From NCBI GenBank assembly GCA_023138975.1, contig JAGLON010000018.1:160381-224380 (forward strand): a stretch of 64,000 nt of DNA. Reading direction: 5' to 3'. Position numbers and translations under genes: made by a program. Every line of letters begins with the position of its first letter. The stretch's first letter is position 1. Of this stretch, positions 98 to 15,194 are shown one piece after another. The notes beneath the pieces are model-generated. The model saw only the letters and a program-made list of their open reading frames with translations. It did not search any database and was not told where the DNA came from. Source of the stretch: Candidatus Zixiibacteriota bacterium (GTDB taxonomy: Bacteria; Zixibacteria; MSB-5A5; GN15; JAAZOE01).

Positions 98-2176
98 CTA
101 TTTTTTAACGTCGGTCGAATCCGGTTTTGGCAAAGACTCATCTAATCCTGCGCCCCATTTGCCGGGGACATTCCAGAAGAGATTGTTCCCGCCGTTTCCC
201 TGATAGCGATCATCACCGTCCATATCAAGGAATATCCCAATAGAACCGTAATCACGCCTCGGATTGCCGTAACCTTGAGTATTGTGCTTGTCGTGCGTGT
301 AATAGCCGTCATCACCGGTGAGGTCGTTGAAAATCCCGATGCCGTTGGCCTGACCGGCTCCCTGTGCCAATCCCTGAGCCGTATAGATATCGTTGCCGCC
401 TTTGTCTAACAGCCACCCGCAGGAATAATCATGCCCGCATCCCTGACAAACGCCGTGCGAACGGTAAACATCGTCGCCGTCGCAATCCATCAGCATCCCC
501 AGTGTCATGTGAGCTCCGGCTCCCTGAGCGTACTGATAGGAGGAATAAAGATCATTGCCCGATTTATCGTAAATCATACCCAGCGACCACCAGTACGAAG
601 ATGCTTGAGCGAAAAAGTCGGCCAGGTAGGAATCATTGCCGCCGTAGTCACAGATGAATCCGAAACCGCCGGACATGTGAGGTCTCACACCAATTCCAAA
701 GCCCTGAGACAGCGATGTGTAATGATTGCCGACATGGAAGTACTCTTTATACTTCGGCTGAATGATATAGGAATCGTTGCCGTCGTAATCGATAATGCCG
801 CCGATTCCTTTCACGAAGCCGAATCCCTGACTCTGGAGATTAGCTGTATAGACATCTGAGCCTTCTTCGTCTATTAACAGGCCGTAGCCGAATGTTCCTG
901 CGCCTTGTACAAATGTATCGCCGAAGTATTTATCGTTACCTTTTTTATCCCAGAGAATGCCGACACCGAAGTATCCGGCACCGAGTCCAAAATTTTTGGC
1001 TTGATAGATATCATCGCCTTCGTAGTCGATTAGGAGTGAAAAGTCCAGTGCGCCACAGGCGAGGGCATAGTCGGTCGTGGCATTATAGAAATCATTGCCG
1101 GAGTAATCAACGATGATGCACGGGTGCGGATTGTTGATATCATAGGACAAGTTATAGATATCATCCCCGCCCGGATCAATGATTAGTAAATAGTCACCAT
1201 CGTAAACATCATTCCCTTCGGTGCCAATCGCTACTTTGAACTTACCTTTTTTCTCAAAGTCCTTAGTCTTTTTCGCGACTTTCTTTCGAAACCCTTTGTC
1301 AATTAACGGACGCAATTCAGCAAACAGACTATCCAGCTTTCTTATTTCATCTATAGGTATTCTTGCCGGTGTAATCTCTTTTCCATTTTCTGCAAATTTA
1401 ATGGCCCATGCTTCTTCTATATTCTGAATGGAATCGAGCTGCTCGTTCGTCCATTTACGGTAATCGGGATCATCAAGAATGAGCTCTGGAAAAGTATCTT
1501 TCACGAATACCATGAGCTTGGCTTTATCATTTTTTTTATCACTATAATTGTATCTGTATTGTAATCTTGAAGGCGCTCTCAAGTAAAACTTGTAACTTAT
1601 AAAATATGGAGAAGCATATATCTGATTAAATATGCTTCCAGCATCCCCTTTTATATCAATGGGACTTCCCCAACGCTCTTCCAGATAGACAATGGGAGAC
1701 CACAAGTTTGGCTCCGGTGATCTGTGTCCTCGGGCTCTTACTTTCACTGACTGTATGTAAGTTTCCGCCGACCAAAGACTACGGTCTTCTTTACTATCAG
1801 ACAGGTCCTCACCATCAGACAGGTCTCCACCATCAGACAGGTCTCCGAACAGATATTGCAGCAGTGATAAAGCAACTTCGGGCTTATCTCCAAACCCCCG
1901 CATCACATCGGCAAAGTTGTCCGTGAAGTCGGCCATCCGAATCGGTCGGGTCATCAGGCTGTCGACTATCTTCAGCCGATATGGGTCTTTGGCAGTATAG
2001 TCATCCCGGAATCTGAAATCATCCCGGGTCAAGAGCATATTATTCAGGATACGATCCATCCCGGCATCAAGCAGGCTGTCTCTATCTATTGTCGTTGTGT
2101 CGGTGGGAGTCTCCTGAGCGGCTGTGGGAGCGCACGCCAGAGCCATCAATACGAGGGTAATAATGATTTTCTTCAT
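98..2176 (-). CDS. secreted repeat protein; C-terminal half carries about 12 G-[ND]-D-x-Y / QG-G-G repeats (RTX/beta-roll-like); function unknown
   Basis: 692-aa ORF with signal peptide MKKIIITLVLMALACAPTAAQ. Recurring GNDVY, GDDIY, GNDFY, GNDKY, GSDVY, GNDSY, GNDLY, GDDVY, GNDIY, GDDGY, GDDRY motifs every 20-40 aa. Confidence 0.75.
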   Translation of the reverse strand: MKKIIITLVLMALACAPTAAQETPTDTTTIDRDSLLDAGMDRILNNMLLTRDDFRFRDDYTAKDPYRLKIVDSLMTRPIRMADFTDNFADVMRGFGDKPEVALSLLQYLFGDLSDGGDLSDGEDLSDSKEDRSLWSAETYIQSVKVRARGHRSPEPNLWSPIVYLEERWGSPIDIKGDAGSIFNQIYASPYFISYKFYLRAPSRLQYRYNYSDKKNDKAKLMVFVKDTFPELILDDPDYRKWTNEQLDSIQNIEEAWAIKFAENGKEITPARIPIDEIRKLDSLFAELRPLIDKGFRKKVAKKTKDFEKKGKFKVAIGTEGNDVYDGDYLLIIDPGGDDIYNLSYDINNPHPCIIVDYSGNDFYNATTDYALACGALDFSLLIDYEGDDIYQAKNFGLGAGYFGVGILWDKKGNDKYFGDTFVQGAGTFGYGLLIDEEGSDVYTANLQSQGFGFVKGIGGIIDYDGNDSYIIQPKYKEYFHVGNHYTSLSQGFGIGVRPHMSGGFGFICDYGGNDSYLADFFAQASSYWWSLGMIYDKSGNDLYSSYQYAQGAGAHMTLGMLMDCDGDDVYRSHGVCQGCGHDYSCGWLLDKGGNDIYTAQGLAQGAGQANGIGIFNDLTGDDGYYTHDKHNTQGYGNPRRDYGSIGIFLDMDGDDRYQGNGGNNLFWNVPGKWGAGLDESLPKPDSTDVKK
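1796..1849 (-). repeat. in-frame 18-bp tandem repeat (3 copies) inside the 692-aa gene
   Basis: atcagacaggtcYYcacc repeated at 1796, 1814 and 1832. Encodes GDLSDGGDLSDGEDLSDS. Confidence 0.85.
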
Positions 2177-2962: not shown

Positions 2963-3745
2963 TCACATCCTCTTGGGCCTGACAACAAATACCCACGCAG
3001 GAAGGATGGGAAAAATAATCTTGCGGAACAGCCAGCGAGGCATCCTTGACAGAAATGAACCGGGTTGAATCACATCATCGGCGGTATACTTTTTCGGGTC
3101 GTCAATCAGCTTTTCTGTATAATCTATCATCTCGAAGTTTTTTAACAGCTTCCGCAAATTCCTCAACGACAGTAAAAAGACATCGTATTTGACTTTTCGA
3201 CCCATCAGCTTCAAATATAAATGCGACGCCCATAAAGGCATCCATGATAAAAATGGCAAAAAATAATGACCTTCTATAAGTACAAACCGGTTACCGGCCC
3301 CAAAATAACAGAACCCGTTCGGAGACAGCAAACGTTCAATTTCAAATGCCAATCCGTGCTGATCTTCGACATGCTCATAGACTTGATTGCAGATAATGAC
3401 ATCGACTGAGCCGTCAACTAATCCAGACTTGGTACCGTCTGAGCAAACGTAATCAATATTGGATGCACTCGTTTGTTTCTTACCCGATTTCAATCCGACA
3501 TCATCGACATCAAGCGCAATCACCCGTTTGAAATGCCCGGCGAAATATTCGGTCATAATAGAAGTTGAAGCTCCCAAGTCCAGTGCGACTAATTGGTCAA
3601 GCGGTTTATCGGCAAAGTCACGGCACACAGCAATAACTTTTTCCGCCTTCTTATTGCGTTGGTCCTCGTTGTACAGGACAGGGAATCGTTCGGAGAAGGT
3701 CCCCTCTTTTTCATAGTCATATTTTGGTTCAGTAGCTACGCTCAT
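2963..3745 (-). CDS. class I SAM-dependent methyltransferase
   Basis: Motif I-like VALDLGASTS and the later DVIICNQVYEHV. 4-nt overlap with the upstream gene, so operon member. Confidence 0.8.
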   Translation of the reverse strand: MSVATEPKYDYEKEGTFSERFPVLYNEDQRNKKAEKVIAVCRDFADKPLDQLVALDLGASTSIMTEYFAGHFKRVIALDVDDVGLKSGKKQTSASNIDYVCSDGTKSGLVDGSVDVIICNQVYEHVEDQHGLAFEIERLLSPNGFCYFGAGNRFVLIEGHYFLPFLSWMPLWASHLYLKLMGRKVKYDVFLLSLRNLRKLLKNFEMIDYTEKLIDDPKKYTADDVIQPGSFLSRMPRWLFRKIIFPILPAWVFVVRPKRM

Positions 3746-4422
3746 TTGATTTTTAACCTGTAAATTTGTGATAATGAAAATAGTCCCGGAATCAGCCGGG
3801 CTATAAACCTGCCAACAGCCTGCAATGCCTTTAATTTGGGCGGTACGACCGAGACCGAAATCGTTTTATCAATAGTCAGCCCGCATTTATCAAACAGCTC
3901 CCTCGCCCGTCCTGGAGAAAACAGTCTGATATGCGACTCCTCAAAATGTCCCAGATGGCTCTTGCCCAGTAACAGTTTTAATCTTGATAGAATATGAAAC
4001 TCATTCGGTACTGAGATTATCAGATAACCACCCGGATTAAGAGCTTTTCTCATCTTGGCTATAACCGCTTCCGGATCGAATATCTGCTGGAGAACCTCAA
4101 GGCACATCAGAACATCATACTTACCCGGAATCGGGTCAGTTTCAAGATCACATAAAAAAGCATCGAATCCAGATTGAGAGAGTTCTCTGATTGTATCTGA
4201 CGAAATATCACAACCGTTGACATTAAACCCTGACTGAAACAATTGCCGCATAACAGTTCCGCGTCCGCATCCGACATCGATAATCTTTTTGTTTTTATCT
4301 GGTTCAAAAAGCGTTTGTATAATATCGGCTCTTTGAATCGAACGCAGATCGGCGCTTGAGATATCCCGGGTTTTCCAGTATTGATTAAAATACTGTTTTT
4401 TCTCATCGGTTCCATTTAACAT
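3742..4422 (-). CDS. class I SAM-dependent methyltransferase
   Basis: IIDVGCGRGTV (GxGxG motif) and YDVLMCLEVLQQI. Overlaps both neighbours. Confidence 0.8.
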   Translation of the reverse strand: MLNGTDEKKQYFNQYWKTRDISSADLRSIQRADIIQTLFEPDKNKKIIDVGCGRGTVMRQLFQSGFNVNGCDISSDTIRELSQSGFDAFLCDLETDPIPGKYDVLMCLEVLQQIFDPEAVIAKMRKALNPGGYLIISVPNEFHILSRLKLLLGKSHLGHFEESHIRLFSPGRARELFDKCGLTIDKTISVSVVPPKLKALQAVGRFIARLIPGLFSLSQIYRLKIK

Positions 4423-5570
4423 GCGACAGATTCCCGGCGCACACTATCTTTTGACAGATAGGAGATCAGCCAATCGGCGAATGAGTCGGCGGCGCGGTCA
4501 ATATTTAGTTCATTAACACATTCATCAAATCTTTGTTTTACGGGAGTACCATTTGTGATAAATAACCGTAATGCTTCAGCAAGCTTTTCAGGAGACTGGG
4601 CAGGCACGACCGTACCGACCTGATATTTCTCAATGAAATACCGCAAATCCCCAACATCGGTGGCAATCACCGGGTGATTCAACTGCATCGCTTCACCAAA
4701 GGTCAACGGCAGTGAATCGGCATGAGTCGGAATCACAACTGCCGATGATTTTACAATGGCTCGGTACATATTTTCACGAGGCACAAATCCCAATGATTTC
4801 ACCCGGTTTGATAATCCATATTTCTCGATACGATTTTCAAGTTCGCTTCGGGCAGAACCGTCACCGATAAAATACAATTGCCATTCGGGAAATTCTGATG
4901 AAACAATTTTAAATGCCTCAAGCAAATCATATACGCCTTTGGCTTCTTCAACCCGTCCCGGACAGACAATCAGTTTTTCTCTTTTCTCATGTTTTGAAGG
5001 AGGATAATTCACTTTACGCATCGATGGAAGAAAAAAGGACTCTTTTCCACACAGCTCAGACGCTCTTTCTCCGAGTTCATAACCGTCGCTATAAATTCGC
5101 TCAGCCTGCTTTAGGACACTGATAATTTGTCCTCGGATGACAGGTATTTTTGGATAAGTATGAATATCTGAACCAAGGCACCAGACGGCATAGTCGAGAT
5201 CATACTTCTTTTTTAGATTGCGGGCGAATATCCCCGACGGAGCCGCCCACAACGCCAAACAAAAATCGAATTTATTAGTTTGATGCAGCTGCTGGGCAGT
5301 GTTGTTTCCACGATATAAATAATTCGCTATTTTCAGCCAGCTTAAAGGCGAATACTTTGATAGCGAACCGATGGTCTGGTTTTCTTCACCCCATTTAAAC
5401 CGAACAATGTTCTCCGTATTATCATACTTCTCAGAAAAATGATACGGCGTTAATACAGTCGTTTCGATATCATGACGGTTGAGGCCCTTGACGAAGTCTG
5501 ACACAAACGGCGAGGCAGCGTCATCAGCGTGAGCCGGATATCGATTGGATATAAGCAGCAGTTTAATCAA
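4416..5570 (-). CDS. GT4-family (GT-B) glycosyltransferase
   Basis: C-terminal PTHADSLPLTFGEAMQLNHPVIATDVGD (E-x7-E type motif). The ORF-track N-terminus overlaps the GT2 gene. Likely TTG start at 5570 (LIKLLLISNRYP) overlapping the GT2 stop; the start is uncertain. Confidence 0.75.
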   Translation of the reverse strand: MIKLLLISNRYPAHADDAASPFVSDFVKGLNRHDIETTVLTPYHFSEKYDNTENIVRFKWGEENQTIGSLSKYSPLSWLKIANYLYRGNNTAQQLHQTNKFDFCLALWAAPSGIFARNLKKKYDLDYAVWCLGSDIHTYPKIPVIRGQIISVLKQAERIYSDGYELGERASELCGKESFFLPSMRKVNYPPSKHEKREKLIVCPGRVEEAKGVYDLLEAFKIVSSEFPEWQLYFIGDGSARSELENRIEKYGLSNRVKSLGFVPRENMYRAIVKSSAVVIPTHADSLPLTFGEAMQLNHPVIATDVGDLRYFIEKYQVGTVVPAQSPEKLAEALRLFITNGTPVKQRFDECVNELNIDRAADSFADWLISYLSKDSVRRESVAC

Positions 5571-6618
5571 CGACCGAAACCCTTTCGGTTTTATTAATTT
5601 TGTAATCTGTAGTTTTCTTCGCCTCACTGAGCTGATTGACCTGCTGAATGATTTCTCCCTGCCGCCTTTGAACCCGGAATATCTCACGCCGTAGGCTGAC
5701 CAACAACGACCCTAAAAATCCAAACAAGAGCACCTGCATTCCAGCCAGTAGAACAATAACCATCAGGGTCATCAGGGGTCGATTTGGATTGAGCGTTCCG
5801 GCCTGCCAGAGATACACGATATAACTTCCGGCTGCCAATCCGGCCACAACTAACAATGACCCGACGACTCCAAACAAGATTGAAGGTTTTTCAAAAAACG
5901 AAAATAGTATATGAGATATCGCGGTCGCTTTGAATCGGAATTTAGATTTGCCTTTCTTTCGGGATGTAAGCACCGCAGGAAATTCGATGATCCGGAATCC
6001 GGCCGCAATGCCTTTGGATATGATTTCAAGATGAATCTCTTTACCGTCGGCTTCAAGATCGAGTGCCTGAATCTCCGAGGCTTTGTAGCCTCGTAAAATC
6101 CCCGTAACAGTATGGATATTGCCCGGCATAATACGCGAAAGGATTATATTGCCAAGTTTTGAGATAAACAAGCGATTGGCCGGGACATTCTCGGTCCCGC
6201 CGCCTTCCATATAGGGCGAGCCGATAACCATATCGGGAGCTTCCGGGGCGCTTAACAATTGGTACATGGCAGGCAAATAGGCTTCGTCATATGATAAATC
6301 AGCATCGCAGGTCATTATATATTTGCCCCGGGCATGAGAAATACCGGTACGCAGAGCTCGTCCTCGCCCTGAATTAACGGGATACCCGACCGGACGCAAG
6401 CAATCGTCATCTTGAGCCATTTCTGTCAGCTTAATGAGAGTGTCGTCGCTCGAACCGTCATCGACCGGAATTATTTCAAAACTTTGACCGGTCAGCTTCA
6501 ACGCGCTTTTTATCCGCTCAATATTGCCGGGAAGATTCGCGGCCTCATTGAACATTGGCACGACAACTGATATTGTAACTTCATTATTATACATATTAGC
6601 TAAGCTTTCTCGCTTCAA
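5563..6618 (-). CDS. GT2 polyprenyl-phosphate sugar synthase-like glycosyltransferase (DPM1/ArnC/GtrB-like) with C-terminal TM helices
   Basis: ISVVVPMFNEAANL, PVDDGSSDDT, CDADLSYD (DxD), then two C-terminal hydrophobic helices. Confidence 0.85.
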   Translation of the reverse strand: MKRESLANMYNNEVTISVVVPMFNEAANLPGNIERIKSALKLTGQSFEIIPVDDGSSDDTLIKLTEMAQDDDCLRPVGYPVNSGRGRALRTGISHARGKYIMTCDADLSYDEAYLPAMYQLLSAPEAPDMVIGSPYMEGGGTENVPANRLFISKLGNIILSRIMPGNIHTVTGILRGYKASEIQALDLEADGKEIHLEIISKGIAAGFRIIEFPAVLTSRKKGKSKFRFKATAISHILFSFFEKPSILFGVVGSLLVVAGLAAGSYIVYLWQAGTLNPNRPLMTLMVIVLLAGMQVLLFGFLGSLLVSLRREIFRVQRRQGEIIQQVNQLSEAKKTTDYKINKTERVSVVD

Positions 6619-8485
6619 TGCTATTCAAAATCTTTTCTGCTTCGGGACAGCCATCACCAGTCACAACCGCCTGCTTCAATAACTCAACAGCATCCTGGCT
6701 TCTTCCGGCATTCAAAAACGCAATCCCAAGTCTTAACAGGTATTCGGGATTTTCGGCATCGGTCTCAATAGCGTATTGAAAGAATTCCAAAGCGTCTTTA
6801 GATTGACCTATTTTATCGAAATAGACTCCGTAATTGAAAGCGTTGCGGGCCGTGAATTCGATAGTTAATAAGTCGGTAGCGTTTCCGGCAATTAACTTAA
6901 GGATTCGAGATGTTCCGCCGGACGGTAGAGGGTTAACTATCTTCTCCGCTGAATACCGGAATAAGAAGCCATCTGGACTCAGGTTATCAGTTACAACTCC
7001 CGGCGTCCCAAACTGTACTTGAATCGGCCGGGCGTCATAATTCAACGAGCAAATTTGGGCGACGAGATTATCCAGATTGTTAATTTTGTACTCGTCGATA
7101 CCCTCCGGGAAATGCAGTTCGGGATATAATTGCTGAACCTGATTTCTATAGGCGGGCCGATACAAGGCTCCCGCTGAAATAACGGCAACATCCGGCCTCC
7201 TGTGGGCGGCAAAACAATGATACCAGAGCGGCAGTGCAACATCATCTTCATTGACAATCAGGAGCGCGTCTTTAGGCGCGAATTGGAAAACAGCTTCGGC
7301 TAAAATATCCGGTCCCTCGGTGTCTGTCAGGTCGGCATCATAGAGATTTCCATAAAATTCAAAGAATGCCATTAGGATAAAAATCATTGGAAGAAATTTA
7401 ACCGCGGTTTTTCCTTGGTACTTTTCAACGAGGGTGTATAGGCCGGTAAAAGATAGCATGATTGTGAGAATAAGCGGCAATCCGGCATAAGCGACGATAT
7501 CGAAATTGACCGTCCTAAAATCAGCCGCCCAGATAGTTATTAAAAATCCCAGGCTTGCCATAAGACCAAAACAGGCAGCGAGCAAACGCTTTTTCTTAAT
7601 TGTCGCGGCGATGGCTAAAATGAGTCCGATAATAATAAAGCCGCCGGTTTGATAAAAAAGAAACTGCATCAATTTTGTCGCTCGCGCCAAATAGTCGGCT
7701 GGCGGCACCGCACCCTCCGGTAGAAAATCCTCGCCGCTGCGGGTAATCGCGTTATAGGCCGTCTCCATCGTCTTGGGCTGGCCGGAATTAATAGCAGGAT
7801 CTTGATTTGACCGAATTGGCAAATACAGATACACAGAGATTGAAATGGCAAATAGTATTACCGCAACAGCCGCAATACGCATAAAGCTCTGAACTGGCGT
7901 TTGCCGATATGTCATCCAGATTAAAATCGGAATTACCGGTAAAGTGATAATTGCCAAAAGCGAATGATTGGTAAAAGATAATCCTTGAAAGAAAATAGTC
8001 AGAAATATAAACATCTGCCAGTTCCGATTGTCTCTATCCAATAAAGCTCGTGTAAAGAAATACAGGGTCAACAGGGCTAGGAGAATTTGAAGTGCATAGA
8101 CTTCGGCCCGCACGGAAGATTGCCAGACCGGTAGACTCATAAACGCAAAAAAGGTTCCACAGACGGCAGTAATACCAATGTACTTCTTTAACTTGCTCAG
8201 GCGGGTCAGAAGTAATCTTAATATCAGAAAAAAGACAACTCCCCCGGCCGCCGATGAAACTGCTGAATAGACATTGCTTGCTTGAGCGGGATTATCGAAG
8301 AAGAGATGAAACACCCGACCTAAAATCGTATATAACGGAAAACTCGGAGAATGCGGTAATCCGAGGATTTCATTGCAGGTCGCAAACGCGGCCGAATCCA
8401 CCCAAAAATTCCCGGGCGCAAGCGTCCACAAATATACCATTAACAGACTTATGAAGATCGATACGGGCGCTGTAATTTGTTTCAT
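6596..8485 (-). CDS. DUF2723-type GT-C membrane glycosyltransferase with C-terminal TPR repeats
   Basis: 629 aa and multi-pass. N-terminal FWVDSAAFATCNEILGLPHSPSFPLYTILGRVF signature. C-terminal TPR-like NAFNYGVYFDKIGQSKDALEFFQYAIE... Confidence 0.8.
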   Translation of the reverse strand: MKQITAPVSIFISLLMVYLWTLAPGNFWVDSAAFATCNEILGLPHSPSFPLYTILGRVFHLFFDNPAQASNVYSAVSSAAGGVVFFLILRLLLTRLSKLKKYIGITAVCGTFFAFMSLPVWQSSVRAEVYALQILLALLTLYFFTRALLDRDNRNWQMFIFLTIFFQGLSFTNHSLLAIITLPVIPILIWMTYRQTPVQSFMRIAAVAVILFAISISVYLYLPIRSNQDPAINSGQPKTMETAYNAITRSGEDFLPEGAVPPADYLARATKLMQFLFYQTGGFIIIGLILAIAATIKKKRLLAACFGLMASLGFLITIWAADFRTVNFDIVAYAGLPLILTIMLSFTGLYTLVEKYQGKTAVKFLPMIFILMAFFEFYGNLYDADLTDTEGPDILAEAVFQFAPKDALLIVNEDDVALPLWYHCFAAHRRPDVAVISAGALYRPAYRNQVQQLYPELHFPEGIDEYKINNLDNLVAQICSLNYDARPIQVQFGTPGVVTDNLSPDGFLFRYSAEKIVNPLPSGGTSRILKLIAGNATDLLTIEFTARNAFNYGVYFDKIGQSKDALEFFQYAIETDAENPEYLLRLGIAFLNAGRSQDAVELLKQAVVTGDGCPEAEKILNSIEARKLS

Positions 8486-8582
8486 ATTAGTTAGTTCGGT
8501 ACATACTGAGAATCATTGACCTAAAAAAAGACGACACCAATCAGCATCGCCTTTTCAAATTTCTTATAACTAGATATTTCAA

Positions 8583-9014
8583 CTAAAACTCGGAATCATT
8601 ACTGGTGCAGATTATCAGTCCCTCTTCATCACATGTCCAGGTATCAAGTACGGCATCATCATCCAGAATACTGCTTGTTGCCGTTATTAGCAAATCGCTT
8701 ACGTCTGCCGTTGTAATCGTATAGGTATATATAGCTGTTGGCATTATCTCAACGGCAATTGGGTTGAAGGCATTTTGAGCCGCCGCTGAAGCCGAGACAC
8801 CAGCTCCCCAATAAGTAGTATGATCTTGGCGATACGTTCGTTCCATTGAGTAGATCTGTTTTAGAATCTGTTTGGCTTCGGACTGCTTGGACTTAGTCGA
8901 TGCTCTCATGAACCTGGGTATTGCGAGTGAGGCAAGAATACCGATAATAACTACGACAATCATTAACTCAATCAATGTAAATCCGCGTTGACGTTTCTGA
9001 ATTATAGTAAACAT
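8583..9014 (-). CDS. type IV pilin / pseudopilin (prepilin N-terminal methylation domain), paralogue 2
   Basis: MFTIIQKRQRGFTLIELMIVVVIIGILA class III signal. ATG at 9014 is preceded by AGGAGG (9021-9026); the ORF-track start at 9038 is rejected. C-terminal Cys pair TWTCDEEGLIIC. Confidence 0.85.
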   Translation of the reverse strand: MFTIIQKRQRGFTLIELMIVVVIIGILASLAIPRFMRASTKSKQSEAKQILKQIYSMERTYRQDHTTYWGAGVSASAAAQNAFNPIAVEIMPTAIYTYTITTADVSDLLITATSSILDDDAVLDTWTCDEEGLIICTSNDSEF

Positions 9015-9084
9015 CGGTAACCTCCTAAACCGCTTCACTAATCGCCTCGTCTTTAAAACCGCTTCATTCTGGTCATTTCTACCT

Positions 9085-9120
9085 AAAAGAATAAAAAGGG
9101 CGGAAGTATTCTTCCGCCCT
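9085..9120 (-). terminator. rho-independent terminator after pilin paralogue 1
   Basis: agggcggaag-tatt-cttccgccct (10-bp stem, 9097-9120) followed on the minus strand by TTTTTATTCTTTT. Confidence 0.8.
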
Positions 9121-9141
9121 AAAGGTGCTTAAATAATCTAG

Positions 9142-9573
9142 TTAGTTGACGACATCATCACTGGTGACCTGTAGCAGGCCCGCCTCGTCAATGGTCCAGG
9201 TATCAATCGTTGCATCATCATCAAGTACACTGCAAGTTGCTGTCACCAAGAGATCGGTTGCGTCCGCGGTTGTAACTGTGTAGGAATATATCGCCGTCGG
9301 CATAACTTCTACACCAATTGTATTAAGTGTGTTTGGAGCCGCGGCAGAAGCTGTAACACCAGCACCCCAATAAGTGTTATGATCCTGACGATAAGTACGT
9401 TCCATTGTGTAGATCTGCTTCAGAATCTGCTTGGCTTCCGACTGTTTTGACTTAGTCGATGCTCTCATGAAACGGGGAATCGCTAAAGCGGCAAGAATAC
9501 CAATGATGACAACCACGATCATGAGCTCGATAAGTGTGAAACCTCTCTGACGGTTATGGAATTTTGAGAACAT
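9142..9573 (-). CDS. type IV pilin (prepilin N-terminal methylation domain), paralogue 1, probable major pilin
   Basis: MFSKFHNRQRGFTLIELMIVVVIIGILA. RBS GGAGG at 9582-9586. Has its own sigma-54 promoter and its own terminator. Confidence 0.9.
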   Translation of the reverse strand: MFSKFHNRQRGFTLIELMIVVVIIGILAALAIPRFMRASTKSKQSEAKQILKQIYTMERTYRQDHNTYWGAGVTASAAAPNTLNTIGVEVMPTAIYSYTVTTADATDLLVTATCSVLDDDATIDTWTIDEAGLLQVTSDDVVN

Positions 9574-9631
9574 TGAAAACCTCCTTAAAAACGTTAACGT
9601 TTACCAATTATTTTTTCATTACCCAACCTTT

Positions 9632-9647
9632 TGCAAAGTCTGTGCCA
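9632..9647 (-). promoter_or_regulatory. sigma-54 (-24/-12) promoter of the pilin gene
   Basis: Minus strand reads TGGCAC-agact-TTGCA, an exact match to TGGCAC-N5-TTGCW with correct GG/GC spacing, about 60 nt upstream of the ATG at 9573. Confidence 0.75.
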
Positions 9648-9827
9648 GAGAACTTTCATTCTCGCCACATCTCGCAAATACTTCATAACCCCTTGCCGCA
9701 CAACAAGACATTTTTCTTAGTCGTTGGGTTTTGACCAAGCCAACTGCCCAGTATGGGATTAATTCTATACTTTTTTATTTGTAAACTGCCTGTACCGTTG
9801 CAAATTGCCATGAATATCTTCTGCCTA

Positions 9828-11213
9828 TTATTTATCTTTTTTATTTGAATTTAAGCCGGATTTGTATTTTTCCAGCTTACGATATAGCGTAGAGGTATCT
9901 ATTCCTAACGTGCGGGCTGCTTTTGACTTATTTCCCTCCGACTGATCCAAGACCCAATGGATATAAGCCTTTTCTATAAATTCAAGGGAGGGTGTTTTGT
10001 GATCGGTCGGTCCGACAAGGCTATCACTTTTGCCTTTAATAATTATATCCGGGAATGCATCCGATTCCAATTTCGTACCCTTATTGAGTAAAACAGCACG
10101 TTCAATCGTGTTTTCCAATTCACGTACATTGCCGGGCCAACTATATGCGGCGAGCATATTATAAATCTCCGGCTGAATAACCTTCGTTCCCAGATTATGA
10201 CGGCGACAGAACTTCTCGACAAAATGATCAATAAGTATCGGTATGTCATCTGTCCTGTCCCTCAACGGGTCAATTACAATCGGAATGACATTTAGGCGGT
10301 AGAATAAATCAGCGCGAAAGCGCCCCTCCTGAACTTCCTGCTCCAAATTTGCATTAGTAGCAGTAATCAACCGGACATCAATGTCAATGGGCTGAGTCTC
10401 ACCGATAGGAGTTATTCTCTTTTCCTCAATAACACGCAAAAGCTTCACCTGAATCGACGGAGACGTATCACCGATTTCATCGAGGAAAAAAGTCCCTCCA
10501 TCGGCCGCCTTAAAATGTCCATCTTTCGAACTTATCGCTCCGGTAAAAGCGCCTTTGCCATGACCGAACAACTCAGATTCTAATAATGTTTCAGGAATAG
10601 CGGCACAGTTGATACTGACCAAACGGCCGTCGTTACGATCGGAAAGCGTATGAATAGCCCGGGCCACCAAATCTTTTCCTGTACCTGATTCGCCGCGAAT
10701 TAGAATAGTGGAATCAGCTTTGGCCACCTGGCGAATCATTTCTTTAAGCTTCATAATAGACTCGGAGACCCCGATAATACTATCGAGCCCCTGAACCTGA
10801 GCCAATTGTTTCCGCAGAGTTATATTTTCACCAATGATTCGGTTATGAGATAAGACCTTATCAATCGTCAGTTTAATTTCATCGATTTTGAACGGCTTGG
10901 TGACGTAATCAGCAGCGCCAATTTTCATTGCCTCAATTGCAGATTCGACCGAAGCGAACGCCGTCATGACAATAAAGTCCTGCTCGGTTTTACGCTTTTT
11001 TACCTGGCCCAGAAGTTCAAGACCGGACATTTCCGGCATCATCATATCCGTAATTACCAGATCATAAGAACCGTTGCAGATTCGGTCAACTGCCTGCCGG
11101 CCGTCAGTGCTGGTTTCGACTTCATACCCCTCCTTTTGGAGCATGATAGCCATGAAATTACACATTGACTCTTCGTCATCTACTATGAAAATTCTACGCG
11201 TCATGTTACCCAA
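9828..11213 (-). CDS. sigma-54-dependent response regulator (REC + AAA+ + Fis-type HTH; NtrC/PilR-like)
   Basis: IFIVDDEESM...DLVITDMMMP (REC), GESGTGKD (Walker A), GAFTGA loop, ELFGH, C-terminal AARTLGIDTSTLYRKL. Confidence 0.9.
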   Translation of the reverse strand: MGNMTRRIFIVDDEESMCNFMAIMLQKEGYEVETSTDGRQAVDRICNGSYDLVITDMMMPEMSGLELLGQVKKRKTEQDFIVMTAFASVESAIEAMKIGAADYVTKPFKIDEIKLTIDKVLSHNRIIGENITLRKQLAQVQGLDSIIGVSESIMKLKEMIRQVAKADSTILIRGESGTGKDLVARAIHTLSDRNDGRLVSINCAAIPETLLESELFGHGKGAFTGAISSKDGHFKAADGGTFFLDEIGDTSPSIQVKLLRVIEEKRITPIGETQPIDIDVRLITATNANLEQEVQEGRFRADLFYRLNVIPIVIDPLRDRTDDIPILIDHFVEKFCRRHNLGTKVIQPEIYNMLAAYSWPGNVRELENTIERAVLLNKGTKLESDAFPDIIIKGKSDSLVGPTDHKTPSLEFIEKAYIHWVLDQSEGNKSKAARTLGIDTSTLYRKLEKYKSGLNSNKKDK

Positions 11214-11504
11214 CTTGATTCAGAGTCCTTTACAGCTTTACTTTCTTTACAGGGAATCGGCAACATGCACCTCCCCTAAACCGGGTAATTGCAATTTGCA
11301 ATATATTTCAACAGCTATGCGAAGGTGGCTATTGCATTACGGGGCAAAAGATTAACAAGACAGAGTAAGTAACCCTGTGGATCCATCGTGTTTCTGAAGT
11401 TAATTGTCCAATTATTACACAGTGTTTTCGGTAAGGATGACGTTTTTTCTTTGCAAGATTGATATTTTATAGTAATATTTCTGATTGACTGAAGGGATAG
11501 TATT

Positions 11505-11960
11505 ATGATAAATCATAGTCTGTTAGACGAGCTAAAATCTGTTTCTATTAGCAATTCATCCCGTGATGAATATCTGTTAAATACAGCAGAATTAATTCAA
11601 AAGCACTTTCCAGTCTATATTTGGATTGGCTATTACTTCTTAAAAGGTGATAAACTGCATGTCGGCCCCTATGTCGGTAAACCGACTCCTCATACAGTTA
11701 TAGACCTTCATAAAGGAATCTGCGGAGCCGCCGTAAGCCAAAAAGCTACCATTATAGTAGATGACGTCAACGCTGACCCTCGTTATTTGGCTTGCTCCCT
11801 TGAAACCAAATCGGAAATTGTAATTCCGCTGATTGTAAACGGCCGGATTATCGGCGAGCTCGATATTGATTCGGATAAAAAAGCAGCCTTTTCTGAAGAT
11901 GATAAGTTGATACTTGAGGCGGCGGTAGAAATTATTGGCCAAGCTTTGGCCAAAACATAG
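11505..11960 (+). CDS. msrC: single-GAF-domain protein of the free methionine-(R)-sulfoxide reductase type
   Basis: 151 aa with WIGYYFLKGDKLHVGPYVGKP...KGICGAAV...VDDVNADPRYLACSLETKSEIVIPL...IGELDIDS, the YebR/fRMsr pattern. Confidence 0.7.
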   Translation: MINHSLLDELKSVSISNSSRDEYLLNTAELIQKHFPVYIWIGYYFLKGDKLHVGPYVGKPTPHTVIDLHKGICGAAVSQKATIIVDDVNADPRYLACSLETKSEIVIPLIVNGRIIGELDIDSDKKAAFSEDDKLILEAAVEIIGQALAKT

Positions 11961-11964
11961 CCGT

Positions 11965-14127
11965 TTATTCCCGGCTTAACACCCCGCTGGTCAATGCGTT
12001 GATACGATTTTTAACTTTATTTATAATCGCCGGAGGTTTTTCTCCAGGATAATCTAAAACTGATTGGTAGCTGCTAATTGCGTTTTCTCCATACCCCGGC
12101 ATCTTTTCATAAATGACTGCCTTATTATAATGAAGCAACGGATTATTAGGCTCAATAGTTATCAGACTATCAAAAGATTCAATAGCCTGAATATAATCGC
12201 GCCGCCTTATGGCAATCTCAGAAGTCACCAAAAATAAATTGTAGCGGGCGACTTCATAGTCAGGACTGATCTTGATTGCTCTCTCCAATGCCTGACTGGC
12301 TTCATTCAGTTTTCCTAACTGCCGATTCAACATACCAAGAGTGACATAAATTTCGCGTGAAATATATGAAGGCTGGTCATCCTTTTCGGACATTTCAATC
12401 CAATAATAGCTTTCATTCGTTATGTCCCTGTTTATGAAAAATTGCGCTATCGCTAACTTTGTCATGACATCATCAATCGAAGTCTCTAATTGACGAAAAG
12501 AACGAAGAGCATCATTTAGCCGCATATCCCGAGTTGTAATAAAATTATCGATTCTATTTAAAGCGTATTCAATATAAACCTGCTGCAGTTTATAATCGTC
12601 GGTATCGAAATTATATCTGGCCAGGTCATACTCTGTCTCGCTAAGAAAATCATTATTATACTCAGGGTTACTAACAATATGCCCGGGGACATCTATTAGA
12701 CCTCGAGAGACATAACTGGCTGCAGGTTGTTCACTTTCCGGATGAATTAAAAACTCTCGCCCCCAACAGACGACATTGTTTTGTTTTAATTTACTAATGG
12801 CTTCGCTGAAACTCTTAGCACCTGTATTATTGAGCAGTCTCGTTAACGTTCCATTAGTTGTGTAAAGTCGAATATCGGATCTATAGTTTTCACAGTACCT
12901 CATATACAGAGCTGAATGGGCGGCATTATCCGACCGTAGTAATAAAACCGCGTTTTGGGGGACGGCATCAAGGATATCCCTGGCGTAAACCTCGCCTGTA
13001 ATTTCCGACGACAAATCACAACGGGAATAGTTGGTGAGAATCGGGACGGCTACGAGGATAACAATCACTACATTTATTATGACGGGATATTTTTTTAATA
13101 TAGTCCGCTGCACTCGCTTTAACAACTGATGCAACCCGATTATCAGAGCAATAACTAACGGAATAATATACCCCTCATAGTCCGGAATTCGATAACAGCA
13201 GACTATTATTCCGCTGACAAAGGCAGGAATAGAAAACAGTACAAATAAGCGGATATTACGCCTAAAACCAATTATCAATCCAAGGAAACCAATTATGAGA
13301 ATACCCGGTCCGCTATACCAGAATAATTCTATTATTGTTCGTTTGAGGAATAATAGTAAATCGAAGAAAGTGGGCGTATAAACAAACTGCTGATAAATTG
13401 TCGCATTGATACTCTGCCAGAGTGATTTTAAGGAATTATCTGCCATCCAATTAATTGGCAGTGAGTTATCAAAACGAAACAAAAGGAAACCGTAAAGGAA
13501 TAAAGGCATAACAAATAATGCTATCGCGACTCCGGCTTTACGCAAAATGATAGTTTCGGTTTTTGACTTGATTATTATTGCCAGAACGGCTGACAAAATA
13601 ACCACTCCCCCGGAGAAATGATGCGTCAGCAGCAACCCGCATAAAATTGCAATCGAATAGAGACGTTTCATTGAAGCATGCTGATAATACAGAACGATTG
13701 CATATAAAGCGGAAAGATACAACATCGCTCCAAAAGTATAGACTTCAGCAAACACCGCATGCATCCAAACCGGATAGGAAAAGGCAAAAACCAATGCCAG
13801 AGACATATTCATTGAGGTTGAGAGTTTTCTTGAGGATAAGCTGGCTAGTAATCGATACATAATGGCTGCGGAACAGGCGGCGGCAAAGGCTGAAAAAAGA
13901 TTAGCCGCATATGCCGGTCGAAGAAAGAAAAACAGCTTTACCCATAGATAGCCCAGGATAGTATACAACGGATACCCGGGTGGATGGGCAATCCCACCCG
14001 TAGTTAAAATCGTAGTAAGTTCTCCGGCATCACCCACAAATACTGTGCGGCAACAAGTGATAACGTAAACTGTCAGCGCGATAATAAAAATTACAATGGT
14101 GTCAGTTTTGTGCGCTCCGTTAATCAT
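11965..14127 (-). CDS. DUF2723-type GT-C membrane glycosyltransferase with C-terminal TPR repeats (second paralogue)
   Basis: VFVGDAGELTTILTTGGIAHPPGYPLYTILGYLW signature, many TM helices, C-terminal TPRs. Start taken at MINGAHK (14127); the ORF-track start at 14160 is also possible. Confidence 0.8.
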   Translation of the reverse strand: MINGAHKTDTIVIFIIALTVYVITCCRTVFVGDAGELTTILTTGGIAHPPGYPLYTILGYLWVKLFFFLRPAYAANLFSAFAAACSAAIMYRLLASLSSRKLSTSMNMSLALVFAFSYPVWMHAVFAEVYTFGAMLYLSALYAIVLYYQHASMKRLYSIAILCGLLLTHHFSGGVVILSAVLAIIIKSKTETIILRKAGVAIALFVMPLFLYGFLLFRFDNSLPINWMADNSLKSLWQSINATIYQQFVYTPTFFDLLLFLKRTIIELFWYSGPGILIIGFLGLIIGFRRNIRLFVLFSIPAFVSGIIVCCYRIPDYEGYIIPLVIALIIGLHQLLKRVQRTILKKYPVIINVVIVILVAVPILTNYSRCDLSSEITGEVYARDILDAVPQNAVLLLRSDNAAHSALYMRYCENYRSDIRLYTTNGTLTRLLNNTGAKSFSEAISKLKQNNVVCWGREFLIHPESEQPAASYVSRGLIDVPGHIVSNPEYNNDFLSETEYDLARYNFDTDDYKLQQVYIEYALNRIDNFITTRDMRLNDALRSFRQLETSIDDVMTKLAIAQFFINRDITNESYYWIEMSEKDDQPSYISREIYVTLGMLNRQLGKLNEASQALERAIKISPDYEVARYNLFLVTSEIAIRRRDYIQAIESFDSLITIEPNNPLLHYNKAVIYEKMPGYGENAISSYQSVLDYPGEKPPAIINKVKNRINALTSGVLSRE

Positions 14128-14313
14128 ACTCAGCCCCTTTCGAGTATGAAGGCAGTGCATACATATGTGTTACAACCCGTTAGCCCAAATATAATACAAT
14201 ATGCAATAATCGCAACCGCTAATTTGCGGCTGAATCATTCTAGAATGAGTTAAGAATACTATTGTCAGAACAGTTAAATACTGTTTATTTGTACTGTATC
14301 ATCGGAGGTGTCA

Positions 14314-14475
14314 ATGTTCTTAGGTATTGTTTTAGTTTTAGTTGGTAGTATCTGGCTGTTAAATGAATTCGGGATAATCTATTGGAACAACTGGGGGAAA
14401 CTCTGGCCGGTAATAGTTATCGCCCTGGGTGCGAAAATGATTTTCAATAGTAAAAAAACGGATTCGACAGACTAA
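14314..14475 (+). CDS. small (53 aa) two-helix membrane protein
   Basis: Below the ORF-track cutoff. GGAGGTG RBS at 14304-14310, ATG at 14314. MFLGIVLVLVGSIWLLNEFGIIYWNNWGKLWPVIVIALGAKMIFNSKKTDSTD. Followed directly by a terminator. Confidence 0.5.
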   Translation: MFLGIVLVLVGSIWLLNEFGIIYWNNWGKLWPVIVIALGAKMIFNSKKTDSTD

Positions 14476-14477
14476 AT

Positions 14478-14499
14478 AAACCGGACGATTGTCCGGTTT
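14478..14499. terminator. bidirectional rho-independent terminator between convergent genes
   Basis: aaaccggac-gatt-gtccggttt hairpin with A/T runs on both sides. Confidence 0.7.
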
Positions 14500-14518
14500 A
14501 TTTCGAGTTATTACAATT

Positions 14519-15073
14519 TCACTTTTTTGTATATACCGCTTTCATAGTGGAAAACCATGTCTTGCCGCCATCAATTGACATTTCCATTAACCAGTCAAAT
14601 GATTTCTCCGTTAAACTTGAAATAGTCATTCGGGAAAGATATGCTTTTCCCATGTAGAGTTCTTCACCCTGAACAACAAATTTACCATCCACCATATTGC
14701 CTTCATATATACTCAATTGGGCAAACATATTATCTAACCAAGTCACCTGCCACTTTTTTAACTCTCGATTGTAACACATGGTGCTCTCACCAACAAAAGG
14801 CATCCCCATCATTTCGCCTTTATAGTTCTGACGAATGGCTGCGCCATTGAGAATATAGTCATAAGAACCGCTTGATTTCATGTCTTGCCAGGGCTGACTT
14901 GGATCCTGACGCATTTTCATATCAACATCCCAGGCTCCAATAAGATACTTGAGTTCTTTTAATTCAACGGGCGGCCCCATCGGCGGCATACTTTCTTCCG
15001 TTTTCGTCGAATCGACAGCAAAAACCGGAACAATGAGAACTAATAGAATAATTGTCAAAAACAGATGCTTCAT
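14519..15073 (-). CDS. secreted DUF1579-like protein
   Basis: Signal peptide MKHLFLTIILLVLIVPVFA. GAWDVDMKM...NGAAIRQNYKGEMMGMPFVGESTMCYN...WQVTWLDNM pattern. Confidence 0.65.
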   Translation of the reverse strand: MKHLFLTIILLVLIVPVFAVDSTKTEESMPPMGPPVELKELKYLIGAWDVDMKMRQDPSQPWQDMKSSGSYDYILNGAAIRQNYKGEMMGMPFVGESTMCYNRELKKWQVTWLDNMFAQLSIYEGNMVDGKFVVQGEELYMGKAYLSRMTISSLTEKSFDWLMEMSIDGGKTWFSTMKAVYTKK

Positions 15074-15194
15074 TACTTCCTCCTTAATTATCCATCACTA
15101 TACTTTGAGCTATCCAAAAATTCATTACATGCCAAGTATACGTGTAAAGCTGGTTATGGAAATAACAAATTAACAGGAAGTGAAGTTTGTGATA

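Follow-up and report, generated by a model that had tools for sequence, protein, structure and literature searches.

We propose that a minus-strand locus from an uncultured Zixibacteria MAG is probably a pilin-accessory O-glycosylation cassette of Zixibacteria, in which pilins and the genes for a lipid-linked donor lie beside genes for bacterial proteins related to TMEM260, a human protein O-mannosyltransferase. The pilins are likely the targets of glycosylation, based on the retention of this arrangement across dozens of species. An earlier note on this DNA had put forward, with adjacency as its sole link to the pilins, a candidate pilin O-glycosylation locus with a lipid-linked, periplasmic GT2 plus GT-C logic, and that proposal is supported by the conserved neighbourhood, the TMEM260 homology and the class of the GT2.

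Gene content of the locus

In the window (the whole 64-kb stretch of DNA that was analyzed), positions 2963-11213 hold eight genes, all on the minus strand: one for an enhancer-binding protein (EBP), two for pilins and a five-gene glycosylation block. The earlier note had counted nine genes; its strand, its coordinates, the spacing of 97 nt that separates pilin 2 from the GT-C gene (8486-8582) and the small overlaps between the genes of the five-gene block proved exact on re-reading of the sequence, and its domain calls for the EBP, pilins, GT-C, GT2, GT4 and methyltransferases were all upheld by Pfam and NCBIfam. The EBP (9828-11213, 461 aa) is a PilR/NtrC-like sigma-54 enhancer-binding response regulator with Response_reg, Sigma54_activat, AAA_lid_14 and HTH_8 domains. 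Pilin 1 (9142-9573, 143 aa) has the leader MFSKFHNRQRG followed by FTLIEL, matches PF07963 (N_methyl) and fits the NCBIfam PilA model at its N-terminus; the N_methyl motif RG/FTLIEL is present in both pilins. For pilin 2 (8583-9014), the start is most likely the ATG at 9014 and not the GTG at 9038, because the former lies behind an AGGAGG ribosome-binding site and gives a protein of 143 aa, matching pilin 1 and the orthologues. The Ser/Thr-rich pilin segments quoted previously are exact as strings, but they lie in beta strands, and Ser/Thr is conserved at only part of their positions. The 64-kb window held no genes for the type IV pilus machinery.

The glycosylation block begins with DUF2723a (6596-8485, 629 aa), a TMEM260-family GT-C with a PF11028 match and a C-terminal TPR region. 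It is followed by a GT2 polyprenyl-phosphate sugar synthase-like protein (PF00535; ORF 5563-6618), which, judged by its orthologues, probably starts at the ATG at 6594 (5563-6594, 343 aa), and by a GT4 (GT-B) glycosyltransferase (Glycos_transf_1, 110.7 bits; ORF 4416-5687), for which a start at 5570 (4416-5570, about 384 aa) is probable since its orthologues are 384-390 aa long and share 8 nt with the end of GT2. The last two genes encode the SAM methyltransferases A (3742-4422, 226 aa; Methyltransf_23/12/11) and B (2963-3745, 260 aa; Methyltransf_11/25). The interval described earlier missed a gene just outside it that belongs to the same conserved locus, DUF2723b (11965-14160, minus strand, 731 aa; PF11028, 74 bits), which encodes a second TMEM260-family GT-C with TPR.

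Other neighbours were also noted. A stand-alone GAF-domain protein (11505-11960, plus strand, 151 aa; PF01590) is encoded near the EBP gene, and such a protein is found beside the EBP in several clades. The conserved 3' neighbour of the cassette (98-2176, minus strand) encodes a secreted repeat protein of 692 aa without a Pfam match, whose membership in the cassette is uncertain; its homologues occur after the cassette in 28 loci, and directly after the pilins where glycosylation genes are missing (loci L126 and L153). The downstream repeat protein, HEAT, RNase H-like and HDOD genes are also syntenic without an obvious functional link.

Conservation of the cassette

A neighbourhood scan using one genome per species gave 71 species-level loci, most of them from a single candidate phylum, and in 52 of the 71 pilin genes adjoin a DUF2723 gene; most of the remaining loci are contig-end truncations or belong to distant phyla. 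Among Zixibacteria, the pairing of pilins with DUF2723 is kept at 24-57% GT-C identity; the EBP-pilin(s)-DUF2723a-GT2-GT4(-MT-MT) cassette recurs at 27-56% GT-C identity with unrelated flanks, and the pilin 1 orthologues are 49-92% identical across loci. Nearly all related loci have the EBP at the head of the cassette, and in many of them the pilins are flanked by a second DUF2723 gene. Layouts vary: the GT-C gene follows the pilins, precedes them or is found on both sides, and there are one to six pilin copies. In a second, unclassified lineage the order is GT2-DUF2723-pilin-DUF2723-GT39, and the globular domain of the pilin is unrelated. The recurrence of this arrangement in dozens of species is far beyond chance. 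The earlier note had named conservation of the glycosylation operon independently of pilins as grounds for rejecting the link; the 52 loci and the second lineage point the opposite way.

The association also has limits. Pilin neighbours were absent in more distant DUF2723 clades, so the pilin link is specific to the present clade. In the reverse test, there was no DUF2723 gene within 3 kb in 11 of the 46 informative loci with pilins of the present family, and some full cassettes were found without any glycosylation genes. Given that about a quarter of these pilin loci lack the module, the module is an accessory to pilins that can exist alone.

Relationship of the DUF2723 proteins to TMEM260

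DUF2723a scored 86.6 bits against PF11028 (cutoff 24.2), and its family profile matched human TMEM260 (PDB 9rql) with an E-value of 8.7e-69 over 456 positions, the homology spanning the transmembrane (TM) core and reaching into the luminal Rossmann-like domain. These matches indicate that DUF2723a is a true TMEM260 homologue. Its layout comprises about 11 TM helices, a periplasmic Rossmann-like domain and TPR, and its AF2 model has a GT-C fold (pLDDT 92.5, pTM 0.92), with GT-C enzymes making up all of its best fold matches in the PDB (PglB, STT3, ALG12, Pmt4, ArnT, AftD and AglB). Four of the six functionally tested TMEM260 residues are kept: D52, H67, R264 and D441, which are essential in TMEM260 by mutation, correspond to D30, H45, R249 and D414, and the latter do not vary among about 50 species-level orthologues encoded downstream of pilins. 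In TMEM260, D441 is the acceptor-activating base and TPR "fingers" on the periplasmic side bind peptide. Two mannose-contacting residues are not kept in DUF2723a (E252 stands opposite Y267, and the position of R355 is within an insert of the alignment), so the donor sugar may be one other than mannose. DUF2723b also matched TMEM260 (phmmer E 1e-24), its D44 aligning with D52 and the Asp of its SDN with D441.

GT2, GT4 and methyltransferases

The best NCBIfam matches of the GT2 were AglJ, ArnC and PgfS, and its best PDB matches were Dol-P-Man synthase (5mlz), ArnC and GtrB, over the full length including the two C-terminal TM helices (segments 247-265 and 285-303). These matches place the protein among the polyprenyl-phosphate sugar synthases (DPMS/ArnC/GtrB). 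A coupling of the GT2 to the GT-C donor site is suggested by the cassettes that have lost GT2, in which DUF2723a is substituted at H45 plus R249 or R225, in two independent events. Methyltransferase A is kept in the cassette of the window-type clade and several others, with methyltransferase B conserved after it. No flippase gene was found in the cassette.

Regulatory layout

The sequence TGGCACAGACTTTGCA (9632-9647, minus strand) precedes the ATG of pilin 1 by about 58 nt and is the sole zero-mismatch sigma-54 match in the 64-kb window. In related loci, sigma-54-like sites (at least 9/11) precede 52 of 119 pilin genes, 0 of 76 DUF2723a genes and 0 of 44 EBP genes. An intrinsic terminator with a 10-bp GC-rich stem and a T-run follows pilin 1 (9097-9120, minus strand) and was the top-scoring terminator-like site of the scan. 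The interval between pilin 2 and the GT-C gene contains a terminator-like hairpin plus U7 (8523-8556, minus strand), folding as RNA into a 14-bp hairpin followed by UUUUUUU. At the related loci, a GC hairpin with T-run was present at 45 of 50 junctions from pilin to DUF2723, versus 4 of 40 from EBP to the next gene. The operon proposed previously holds for the five glycosylation genes but does not include the pilins, and we restrict the term to those five because the hairpin and U7 separate them from the pilins.

Pilin-accessory cassettes of Pseudomonas have a terminator after the pilin gene (PMC11841053), and the layout seen here, with sigma-54 sites before the pilins only and terminators after them, matches that of known pilin-accessory cassettes. 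The terminator and the absence of a sigma-54 promoter for the operon are also compatible with independent transcription of the GT-C operon.

Proposed mechanism and alternatives

In the mechanism that we propose, the PilR-like sigma-54 activator would drive the pilin genes from the TGGCAC-N5-TTGCA promoter, and, with terminators after the pilins, the five-gene block would be expressed by only part of the transcripts or from a weak promoter of its own. The membrane-anchored GT2 would move a sugar from a nucleotide sugar to polyprenyl phosphate at the cytoplasmic face, and the GT4 and two SAM methyltransferases would probably extend and methylate the glycan on its lipid, ahead of flipping. Simple monosaccharide transfer could do without a cytoplasmic GT4, so this part of the pathway is guesswork. 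DUF2723a, as an inner-membrane GT-C, would hold the lipid-phosphate sugar in a transmembrane pocket by D30, H45 and R249, use its periplasmic Rossmann-like and TPR domains to grip a segment of the membrane-anchored prepilin or pilin that has not yet folded, and transfer the glycan to Ser/Thr with D414 as base. DUF2723b, which has a different donor-site signature, would most likely act elsewhere on the pilin or on the first sugar, adding or extending sugar there. Gene content, homologies, conserved residues, the arrangement of promoters and terminators and the retained neighbourhood are observations; we infer that the pilins are the acceptors, what the glycan is and how large, in which order GT4 and the methyltransferases act, the flippase, and what each paralogue does.

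If the DUF2723 enzymes instead served general protein O-glycosylation, modifying many periplasmic or surface proteins in the manner of PglL of Neisseria or the general system of Bacteroidota, the pilins would be one abundant client or mere neighbours. TMEM260-type enzymes recognise extended peptide segments via their TPR domains with no strict sequon, the glycosylation operon lies behind a terminator and has no sigma-54 promoter of its own, conservation also extends to the neighbouring secreted repeat protein, and other DUF2723 clades are not pilin-linked, all of which would fit such a role. We nevertheless consider it unlikely, as Neisseria pglL-type genes are typically unlinked to pilE, whereas the GT-C genes here have kept their place directly beside pilins in two lineages and despite several rearrangements, and human TMEM260 is itself protein-specific, not general.

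It seems quite improbable to us that the acceptor is not a protein, i.e. that the GT2 and GT-C decorate LPS core, lipid A or an exopolysaccharide serving pilus function (cf. ArnC/ArnT and GtrB/GtrC) and are co-located since pili and polymer act together. Many bacterial GT2 plus GT-C pairs do modify LPS or polysaccharides, the fold matches include ArnT and AftD, and GT4 and methyltransferase genes are common in polysaccharide loci; however, the homology is specifically to a protein O-mannosyltransferase with peptide-binding TPR "fingers", it continues into the luminal Rossmann-like domain with D441 kept as D414, and the cassette contains no genes for polysaccharide export, for a polymerase or for lipid A. 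That the pilin and glycosylation genes are neighbours by descent within one phylum, with no functional coupling, we regard as very unlikely. Such a history would suit the preponderance of a single candidate phylum and the conservation of some downstream genes as well, but the core persists while flanks differ between loci, the GT-C gene shifts upstream or downstream of the pilins, the sandwich varies in its number of pilin copies, DUF2723 genes enclose an unrelated pilin in another lineage, and GT2 loss coincides with GT-C donor-site mutation. Pilin glycosylation remains our preferred reading.

Comparison with known systems

Human TMEM260 (PDB 9rql/9rqm/9rqn) has in common with DUF2723a the build of 11 TM helices, Rossmann-like domain and TPR. 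The two differ in that DUF2723a has a bacterial inner-membrane setting and is accompanied by donor-synthesis and tailoring genes, whereas TMEM260 adds a single, non-extended mannose, and its acceptors are the IPT domains of plexins, cMET and RON, while the putative acceptor here is a type IV pilin.

The actinobacterial Ppm1/Pmt system, in which a polyprenyl-phosphate sugar is made by a GT2 and passed by a GT-C to Ser/Thr of exported proteins, has the same two-step logic, and the GT2 class fits. Unlike DUF2723a, Pmt belongs to the GT39/PMT family, lacks a TPR domain and acts on many Sec substrates, and the genes are unlinked to any particular substrate gene. In the archaeal Agl pathway of Haloferax, the GT2 AglJ, further GTs, the methyltransferase AglP and the GT-C AglB act on dolichol monophosphate. 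AglJ is the best NCBIfam match of the present GT2, and the combination of a priming GT2, an extra GT, one or more methyltransferases and a GT-C on a monophosphate-linked glycan may serve as a template for the role of the GT4 and methyltransferases. Agl glycans, however, are N-linked via the STT3-type AglB, and the sequence-level likeness is limited to the GT2 class.

TfpW, of the arabinosyltransferase cassette of P. aeruginosa group IV (Pa5196/PA7), glycosylates pilin Ser/Thr from a polyprenyl-phosphate sugar. It is a GT-C with 11 TM helices and a periplasmic TPR domain that is encoded directly after pilA, and the comparison drawn with it in the earlier note is apt. DUF2723a resembles TfpW in size, topology, TPR tail and gene position behind a terminator, a likeness of build and position. 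In contrast to TfpW, DUF2723a is in the TMEM260/PF11028 family and the TfpW signature motifs DDX (loop 1) and YX6PFX7P are absent from it. The donor genes here are a GT2, a GT4 and two methyltransferases in one operon, whereas TfpW relies on the PRPP-derived D-Araf pathway (DprE1/E2 etc.), which is usually encoded elsewhere, and there are two GT-C paralogues at the present locus. TfpW is the closest known system, and the Zixibacteria cassette is best read as a new one of the TfpW kind, in a different GT-C family.

Organization of the pilin locus

Eight genes, all in the same orientation on the minus strand, occupy positions 2963-11213. From the upstream end these encode a PilR/NtrC-like, response-regulator-type sigma-54 activator (EBP, 9828-11213), type IV pilin 1 (9142-9573) and its paralogue pilin 2 (8583-9014), followed after a 97-nt spacer by a tightly packed five-gene block: DUF2723a, a GT-C protein of the DUF2723/TMEM260 type that has TPRs at its C-terminus (6596-8485), GT2 (5563-6594), GT4 (4416-5570), and the SAM methyltransferases MT_A (3742-4422) and MT_B (2963-3745). 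Two further genes are located just beyond the EBP gene: DUF2723b (11965-14160), the second to encode DUF2723 plus TPR, and a small GAF gene in divergent orientation. Searches of Pfam and NCBIfam confirmed every domain call of the earlier note, and the genes it listed are all present; it had, however, miscounted them as nine and missed DUF2723b and the GAF gene. For pilin 2 the GTG start, and for GT2 and GT4 the long starts, probably lie too far upstream. The top database match, at 100% identity, was a protein of a candidate division Zixibacteria MAG. The public annotation of DUF2723a (P0001, 601 aa) begins 28 codons (8402-8485, minus strand) 3' of the ORF start used here, which removes most of TM helix 1; the orthologues and the structure model both support the longer form.

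On the downstream side of the cassette is a gene on the minus strand (98-2176) for a 692-aa signal-peptide protein that has many xGxDxY repeats and belongs to no Pfam family. Its homologues were identified 3' of the cassette in 28 related loci, and its position may mean that it belongs to the pilin locus or may merely reflect old synteny. The otherwise conserved junction between MT_B and the repeat protein gene is split by a 199-aa ORF on the opposite strand (2307-2906, plus), for which a single TM helix was predicted and no family was matched. This ORF lies in a patch of low GC content (0.37 versus about 0.44) and looks like an insertion.

Relationship of DUF2723a and DUF2723b to TMEM260

Sequence comparison places DUF2723a in the TMEM260/PF11028 group. 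Both proteins matched PF11028 well above the cutoff of 24.2 bits (DUF2723a, 86.6 bits; DUF2723b, 74.1 bits), and a profile built from 56 relatives of DUF2723a matched human TMEM260 (PDB 9rql_A) with an E value of 8.7e-69. In that alignment profile positions 9-464 correspond to chain residues 30-492, so that the match spans the whole transmembrane core and reaches into the luminal Rossmann-like domain. DUF2723b matched TMEM260 by phmmer (E 1.1e-24). The AlphaFold2 model of DUF2723a (pLDDT 92.5, pTM 0.92) is helical as far as about residue 384, followed by a beta/alpha domain (391-533) and the helices of the TPR (539-628); about 11 hydrophobic/TM segments were identified in the protein, and the TPR was also matched in Pfam. 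When the model was compared by Foldseek with a set of solved PDB folds without TMEM260 entries, the top matches were all GT-C enzymes. The architecture is thus that of TMEM260, which has 11 TM helices (GT-C plus a variable module), an extracytoplasmic Rossmann-like domain and a C-terminal TPR.

The 2026 TMEM260 structure paper assigned D52 and H67 to a sugar-recognition motif, R264 and Y267 to the donor loop, R355 to TMH10 and the role of catalytic base to D441 in the Rossmann-like domain, and described an extended acceptor peptide bound by the TPR "fingers". The counterparts of D52, H67, R264 and D441 in DUF2723a are D30, H45, R249 and D414, all of which are invariant in our alignment of the family (A2) and in about 50 orthologues located downstream of pilins. 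The mannose-contacting residues differ: Y267 is replaced by E252, so that this Tyr is not kept, although the loop alignment is uncertain, and R355 is part of a stretch inserted with respect to the bacterial profile. In DUF2723b the equivalents of D52, H67 and D441 are kept and R264 is not (Ala/Gly), while a Tyr occupies the Y267 position, in the same uncertain stretch of alignment. The DUF2723 paralogues encoded upstream of pilins in related loci have a consistent signature of their own, with R249 replaced by A, G or S and D414 often by V, P or T, and this different donor-site signature points to a distinct role for them.

A 680-aa protein encoded at 29903-31945 (minus strand) is similar to DUF2723 proteins in overall build, being polytopic in the membrane and carrying a TPR domain at the C-terminus. 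It was rejected as a possible third member of the family, since only its TPR part aligned to the DUF2723 profile by hhalign; a Pfam search of its membrane part returned no match. It may represent another uncharacterised transferase of the membrane plus TPR type.

GT2 and the candidate sugar donor

The protein encoded between DUF2723a and GT4 matched the GT2 family (PF00535) with 102 bits. Its top NCBIfam matches were AglJ, ArnC and PgfS, all under their equivalog cutoffs, and among solved structures it aligned over nearly its full length with the Pyrococcus Dol-P-Man synthase 5mlz (5e-22), ArnC (2e-19) and GtrB (9e-16). A DXD motif is present as DAD in TCDADLSYD, and two TM helices (247-265 and 285-303) are at the C-terminus. 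Given its closest solved relatives and the two TM helices, GT2 belongs to the class of polyprenyl-phosphate sugar synthases (DPMS/ArnC/GtrB/AglJ), which load a single sugar onto polyprenyl phosphate.

A connection between GT2 and DUF2723a was apparent from the related loci. Every DUF2723a that is encoded downstream of pilins and has GT2 as its neighbour carries the signature D30-S31-H45-E128-H174-R225-R249-D414. In cassettes without GT2 this signature is altered: four loci (L016, L024, L040 and L057) have H45P together with R249G, and a fifth (L004, DUF2723a at 9992-12049) has S31A, H45S and R225N. The substitutions thus affect the position of TMEM260 H67 plus either that of R264 or the conserved R225, and according to the TMEM260 structure paper the sugar and phosphate are bound at these donor-pocket positions. 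That GT2 was lost at least twice independently, in coincidence with changes in the DUF2723a donor pocket, argues that its product is the donor for DUF2723a. The DUF2723a proteins of cassettes without GT2 may be decaying enzymes, or may have switched to another donor.

Elsewhere in the window, an 832-aa protein in which a sugar-1-phosphate nucleotidyltransferase is fused with a hexapeptide domain and a phosphomannomutase/phosphoglucomutase (46578-49076, minus strand) could be a source of nucleotide sugar. An inositol-1-phosphate synthase is encoded near it (53031-54308, minus strand); neither gene is linked to the cassette.

Conservation of the pilin-DUF2723 neighbourhood

Six orthologues of DUF2723a, with 27-56% identity, were all found in an EBP-pilin(s)-DUF2723a-GT2-GT4-MT-MT cassette whose flanking genes differed. 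A wider forward scan, in which an alignment of 11 closer sequences was used on one genome per species, produced 71 loci that were examined by ORF calling, BLAST and a pilin-motif search. The earlier note had read 2963-11213 as a candidate pilin O-glycosylation locus and had suggested that such neighbourhoods be compared across genomes; pilin genes adjoined the DUF2723 gene in 52 of the 71 loci, with varying flanks, and this conserved neighbourhood supports its reading at the genomic level. The other loci were mostly cut by contig ends or came from distant phyla. Several layouts were observed, including that of the window, in which the EBP gene is preceded by DUF2723b and GAF; EBP-DUF2723-pilin-pilin-DUF2723a-GT2-GT4 without methyltransferases; EBP-DUF2723-pilin-pilin only; forms without GT2; and forms with up to six pilin genes between two DUF2723 genes, the number of pilin copies varying from one to six depending on the species. 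The longest array, in a Zixibacteria MAG (L030, 6064-9707), comprises six tandem pilins, one of which has a degenerate GPSLIE cleavage motif, flanked by two DUF2723 genes.

A cluster of DUF2723, GT2 and pilin genes was also identified in a second lineage, in four unclassified MAGs labelled at source just as "bacterium". The order in one of these (L066) is GT2-DUF2723-pilin-DUF2723-GT39, and the pilin of these four MAGs has only the N-terminal helix in common with the Zixibacteria pilins. As the last gene of L066 encodes a GT-C enzyme of the GT39/PMT_2 family (14446-16344, plus strand), three GT-C genes and a GT2 gene surround a single pilin gene in this locus.

Neither partner is invariably accompanied by the other. 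A general association of bacterial DUF2723 proteins with pilins was ruled out, since the members of three further, more distant DUF2723 clades had neither pilin nor GT2 neighbours and pilin neighbours were likewise absent in several distant phyla; the link is thus a property of particular clades and not of the whole family. The converse search, of metagenome contigs with the globular pilin part as query, gave 79 loci, and among these a DUF2723 gene was present within 3 kb in 35 and absent from 11 that had at least 3 kb on both sides, while 23 were too short, which ruled out that these pilins always carry a glycosylation module. The unlinked loci were of two kinds, either stand-alone pilin paralogues in unrelated contexts or loci without glycosylation genes in which the 692-aa repeat protein was encoded directly 3' of the pilins (L126 and L153). 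These unlinked loci indicate that the glycosylation block is a module accessory to the pilin locus, comparable with tfpO and tfpW of Pseudomonas aeruginosa. Beside one stand-alone pilin of the same family (L140), an 811-aa protein with an IPT/TIG domain is encoded (7076-9508, minus strand). IPT domains are the substrates of animal TMEM260, and there is no DUF2723 gene within 3 kb at this locus; the neighbourhood is probably a coincidence.

Pilin features and transcription signals

Pilins 1 and 2 matched PF07963 with 43.6 and 42.6 bits, respectively, and TIGR02532 above its cutoff. Their leaders end in ...RQRG↓FTLIELMIVV and the mature length is 132 aa. Both are type IV pilins with a class III signal peptide, having a short basic leader ending in Gly, F+1, E+5, a hydrophobic alpha1-N and a small globular domain. 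No assembly machinery (PilB/C/M-Q or prepilin peptidase) was found among the large ORFs of the window, and a Wzy_C/O-antigen ligase domain of the PglL/TfpO type was absent from all cassette proteins in Pfam and NCBIfam searches. Among 100 unique Zixibacteria pilins, mature positions 28, 29, 34, 86, 88, 100 and 127 show at least 80% conservation of Ser or Thr, and an LDDDxxxDxW motif is nearly invariant; an example of the conserved pilin peptide is ...YSYTVTTADATDLLVTATCSVLDDDATIDTWTIDEAGLLQVTSDDVVN. The frequencies of Ser/Thr at positions 103, 104 and 127 were 0.50, 0.40 and 0.90 in DUF2723-linked pilins versus 0.08, 0.00 and 0.50 in unlinked ones, uncorrected for phylogeny, and for the mapping of candidate glycosylation sites these three positions are only a lead.

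The sole perfect sigma-54 promoter in the window, TGGCACAGACTTTGCA, is located about 58 nt 5' of pilin 1. A strong intrinsic terminator is 3' of pilin 1, and a 14-bp hairpin followed by U7 is 3' of pilin 2, within the 97-nt spacer. The same arrangement was apparent in the related loci: sigma-54-like sites were present 5' of 52 of 119 pilin genes and of none of the 76 DUF2723a or 44 EBP genes, and a GC hairpin with a T-run was identified at 45 of 50 pilin-to-DUF2723 junctions versus 4 of 40 junctions between EBP and the next gene. The order of pilin, terminator and accessory gene is the same as in the pilin cassettes of P. aeruginosa, including that with TfpW, in which the terminator sets the ratio of pilin to accessory protein (PMC11841053). 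A second, near-consensus sigma-54 promoter with one mismatch, CGGCACAGGCTTTGCA (33109-33124, plus strand), is located about 95 nt 5' of a 281-aa ORF (33219-34064), and the window also contains a second sigma-54 EBP with an adjoining histidine kinase (40705-42805, minus strand).

Proposed pathway and its significance

We propose that the pilin transcript is driven by sigma-54 and the EBP and is mostly terminated after the pilin genes, and that the five-gene block would be expressed by attenuated read-through or from a separate promoter. GT2 would produce a polyprenyl-phosphate sugar, which GT4 and the two methyltransferases would probably extend and methylate as a lipid-linked sugar at the cytoplasmic face. 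The template for this step is the archaeal AglJ/Agl-GT/AglP route on dolichol monophosphate. A putative flippase would carry the glycan across the membrane, where DUF2723a, its TM pocket occupied by the donor and its "hand" of Rossmann-like domain and TPR by an extended pilin segment, would O-glycosylate Ser/Thr. DUF2723b may perform a second, different transfer. Of this scheme, homologies, residues, gene layout and conservation were observed in the sequences, and the acceptor, the glycan, its sites and the division of labour are inferred.

It is fairly likely that the pilins are the substrate of this pathway. Broader, and put forward tentatively with slightly more doubt than confidence, is the proposal that the TMEM260-family enzymes of bacteria are dedicated to the O-glycosylation of type IV pilins, and that they act on an unfolded beta-strand region of the membrane-anchored pilin and use a methylated polyprenyl-monophosphate glycan built by GT2 and GT4, with initiation and extension split between two paralogous GT-Cs. 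If true, this would provide the first substrate and pathway for prokaryotic homologues of TMEM260, and the metazoan pathway of domain-specific O-mannosylation would gain a plausible precursor in prokaryotes. It was only in 2023 that TMEM260 became known as a protein-specific O-mannosyltransferase, with its structure following in 2026; its bacterial homologues have so far been called just "distant homologs", for which no substrate is known. In the literature searched, DUF2723 was mentioned in a single paper, and no link of DUF2723 or TMEM260 with pili was found. The conserved pilin-GT-C-GT2 cassette provides a concrete and testable candidate for both their acceptor and their donor pathway, and, at five or six genes, it is compact enough for possible reconstitution in E. 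coli with a view to glycoengineering. Phage susceptibility, pilus solubility and adhesion are commonly affected when pilins are glycosylated, and the modification may for this reason matter for the ecology of sediment Zixibacteria.

Comparison with TfpW

The functionally closest system is TfpW of P. aeruginosa (AAM52060.1), a likeness that was drawn from its published description. TfpW and DUF2723a have in common their size, about 11 TM helices, a large periplasmic C-terminal TPR domain and a gene position after the pilin and behind a terminator; TfpW uses a lipid-phosphate sugar as donor, and the adjacent GT2 is of the class that makes such donors. The motifs of the two enzymes differ, however. 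The DDX motif in periplasmic loop 1 of TfpW is missing in DUF2723a, which has a single Asp (W-V-D30-S), and the published proline-rich motif of loop 4, YX6PFX7P, was absent from both DUF2723a and DUF2723b when searched for as Y.{6}PF.{7}P or a relaxed variant. The cassette is best classed as a variant of pilin-accessory GT-C glycosylation, in which the GT-C enzyme is from a different family and the predicted donor pathway is encoded in the same operon, and as such it widens the idea of a pilin-accessory glycosyltransferase from Pseudomonas to a different GT-C family and an uncultured phylum.
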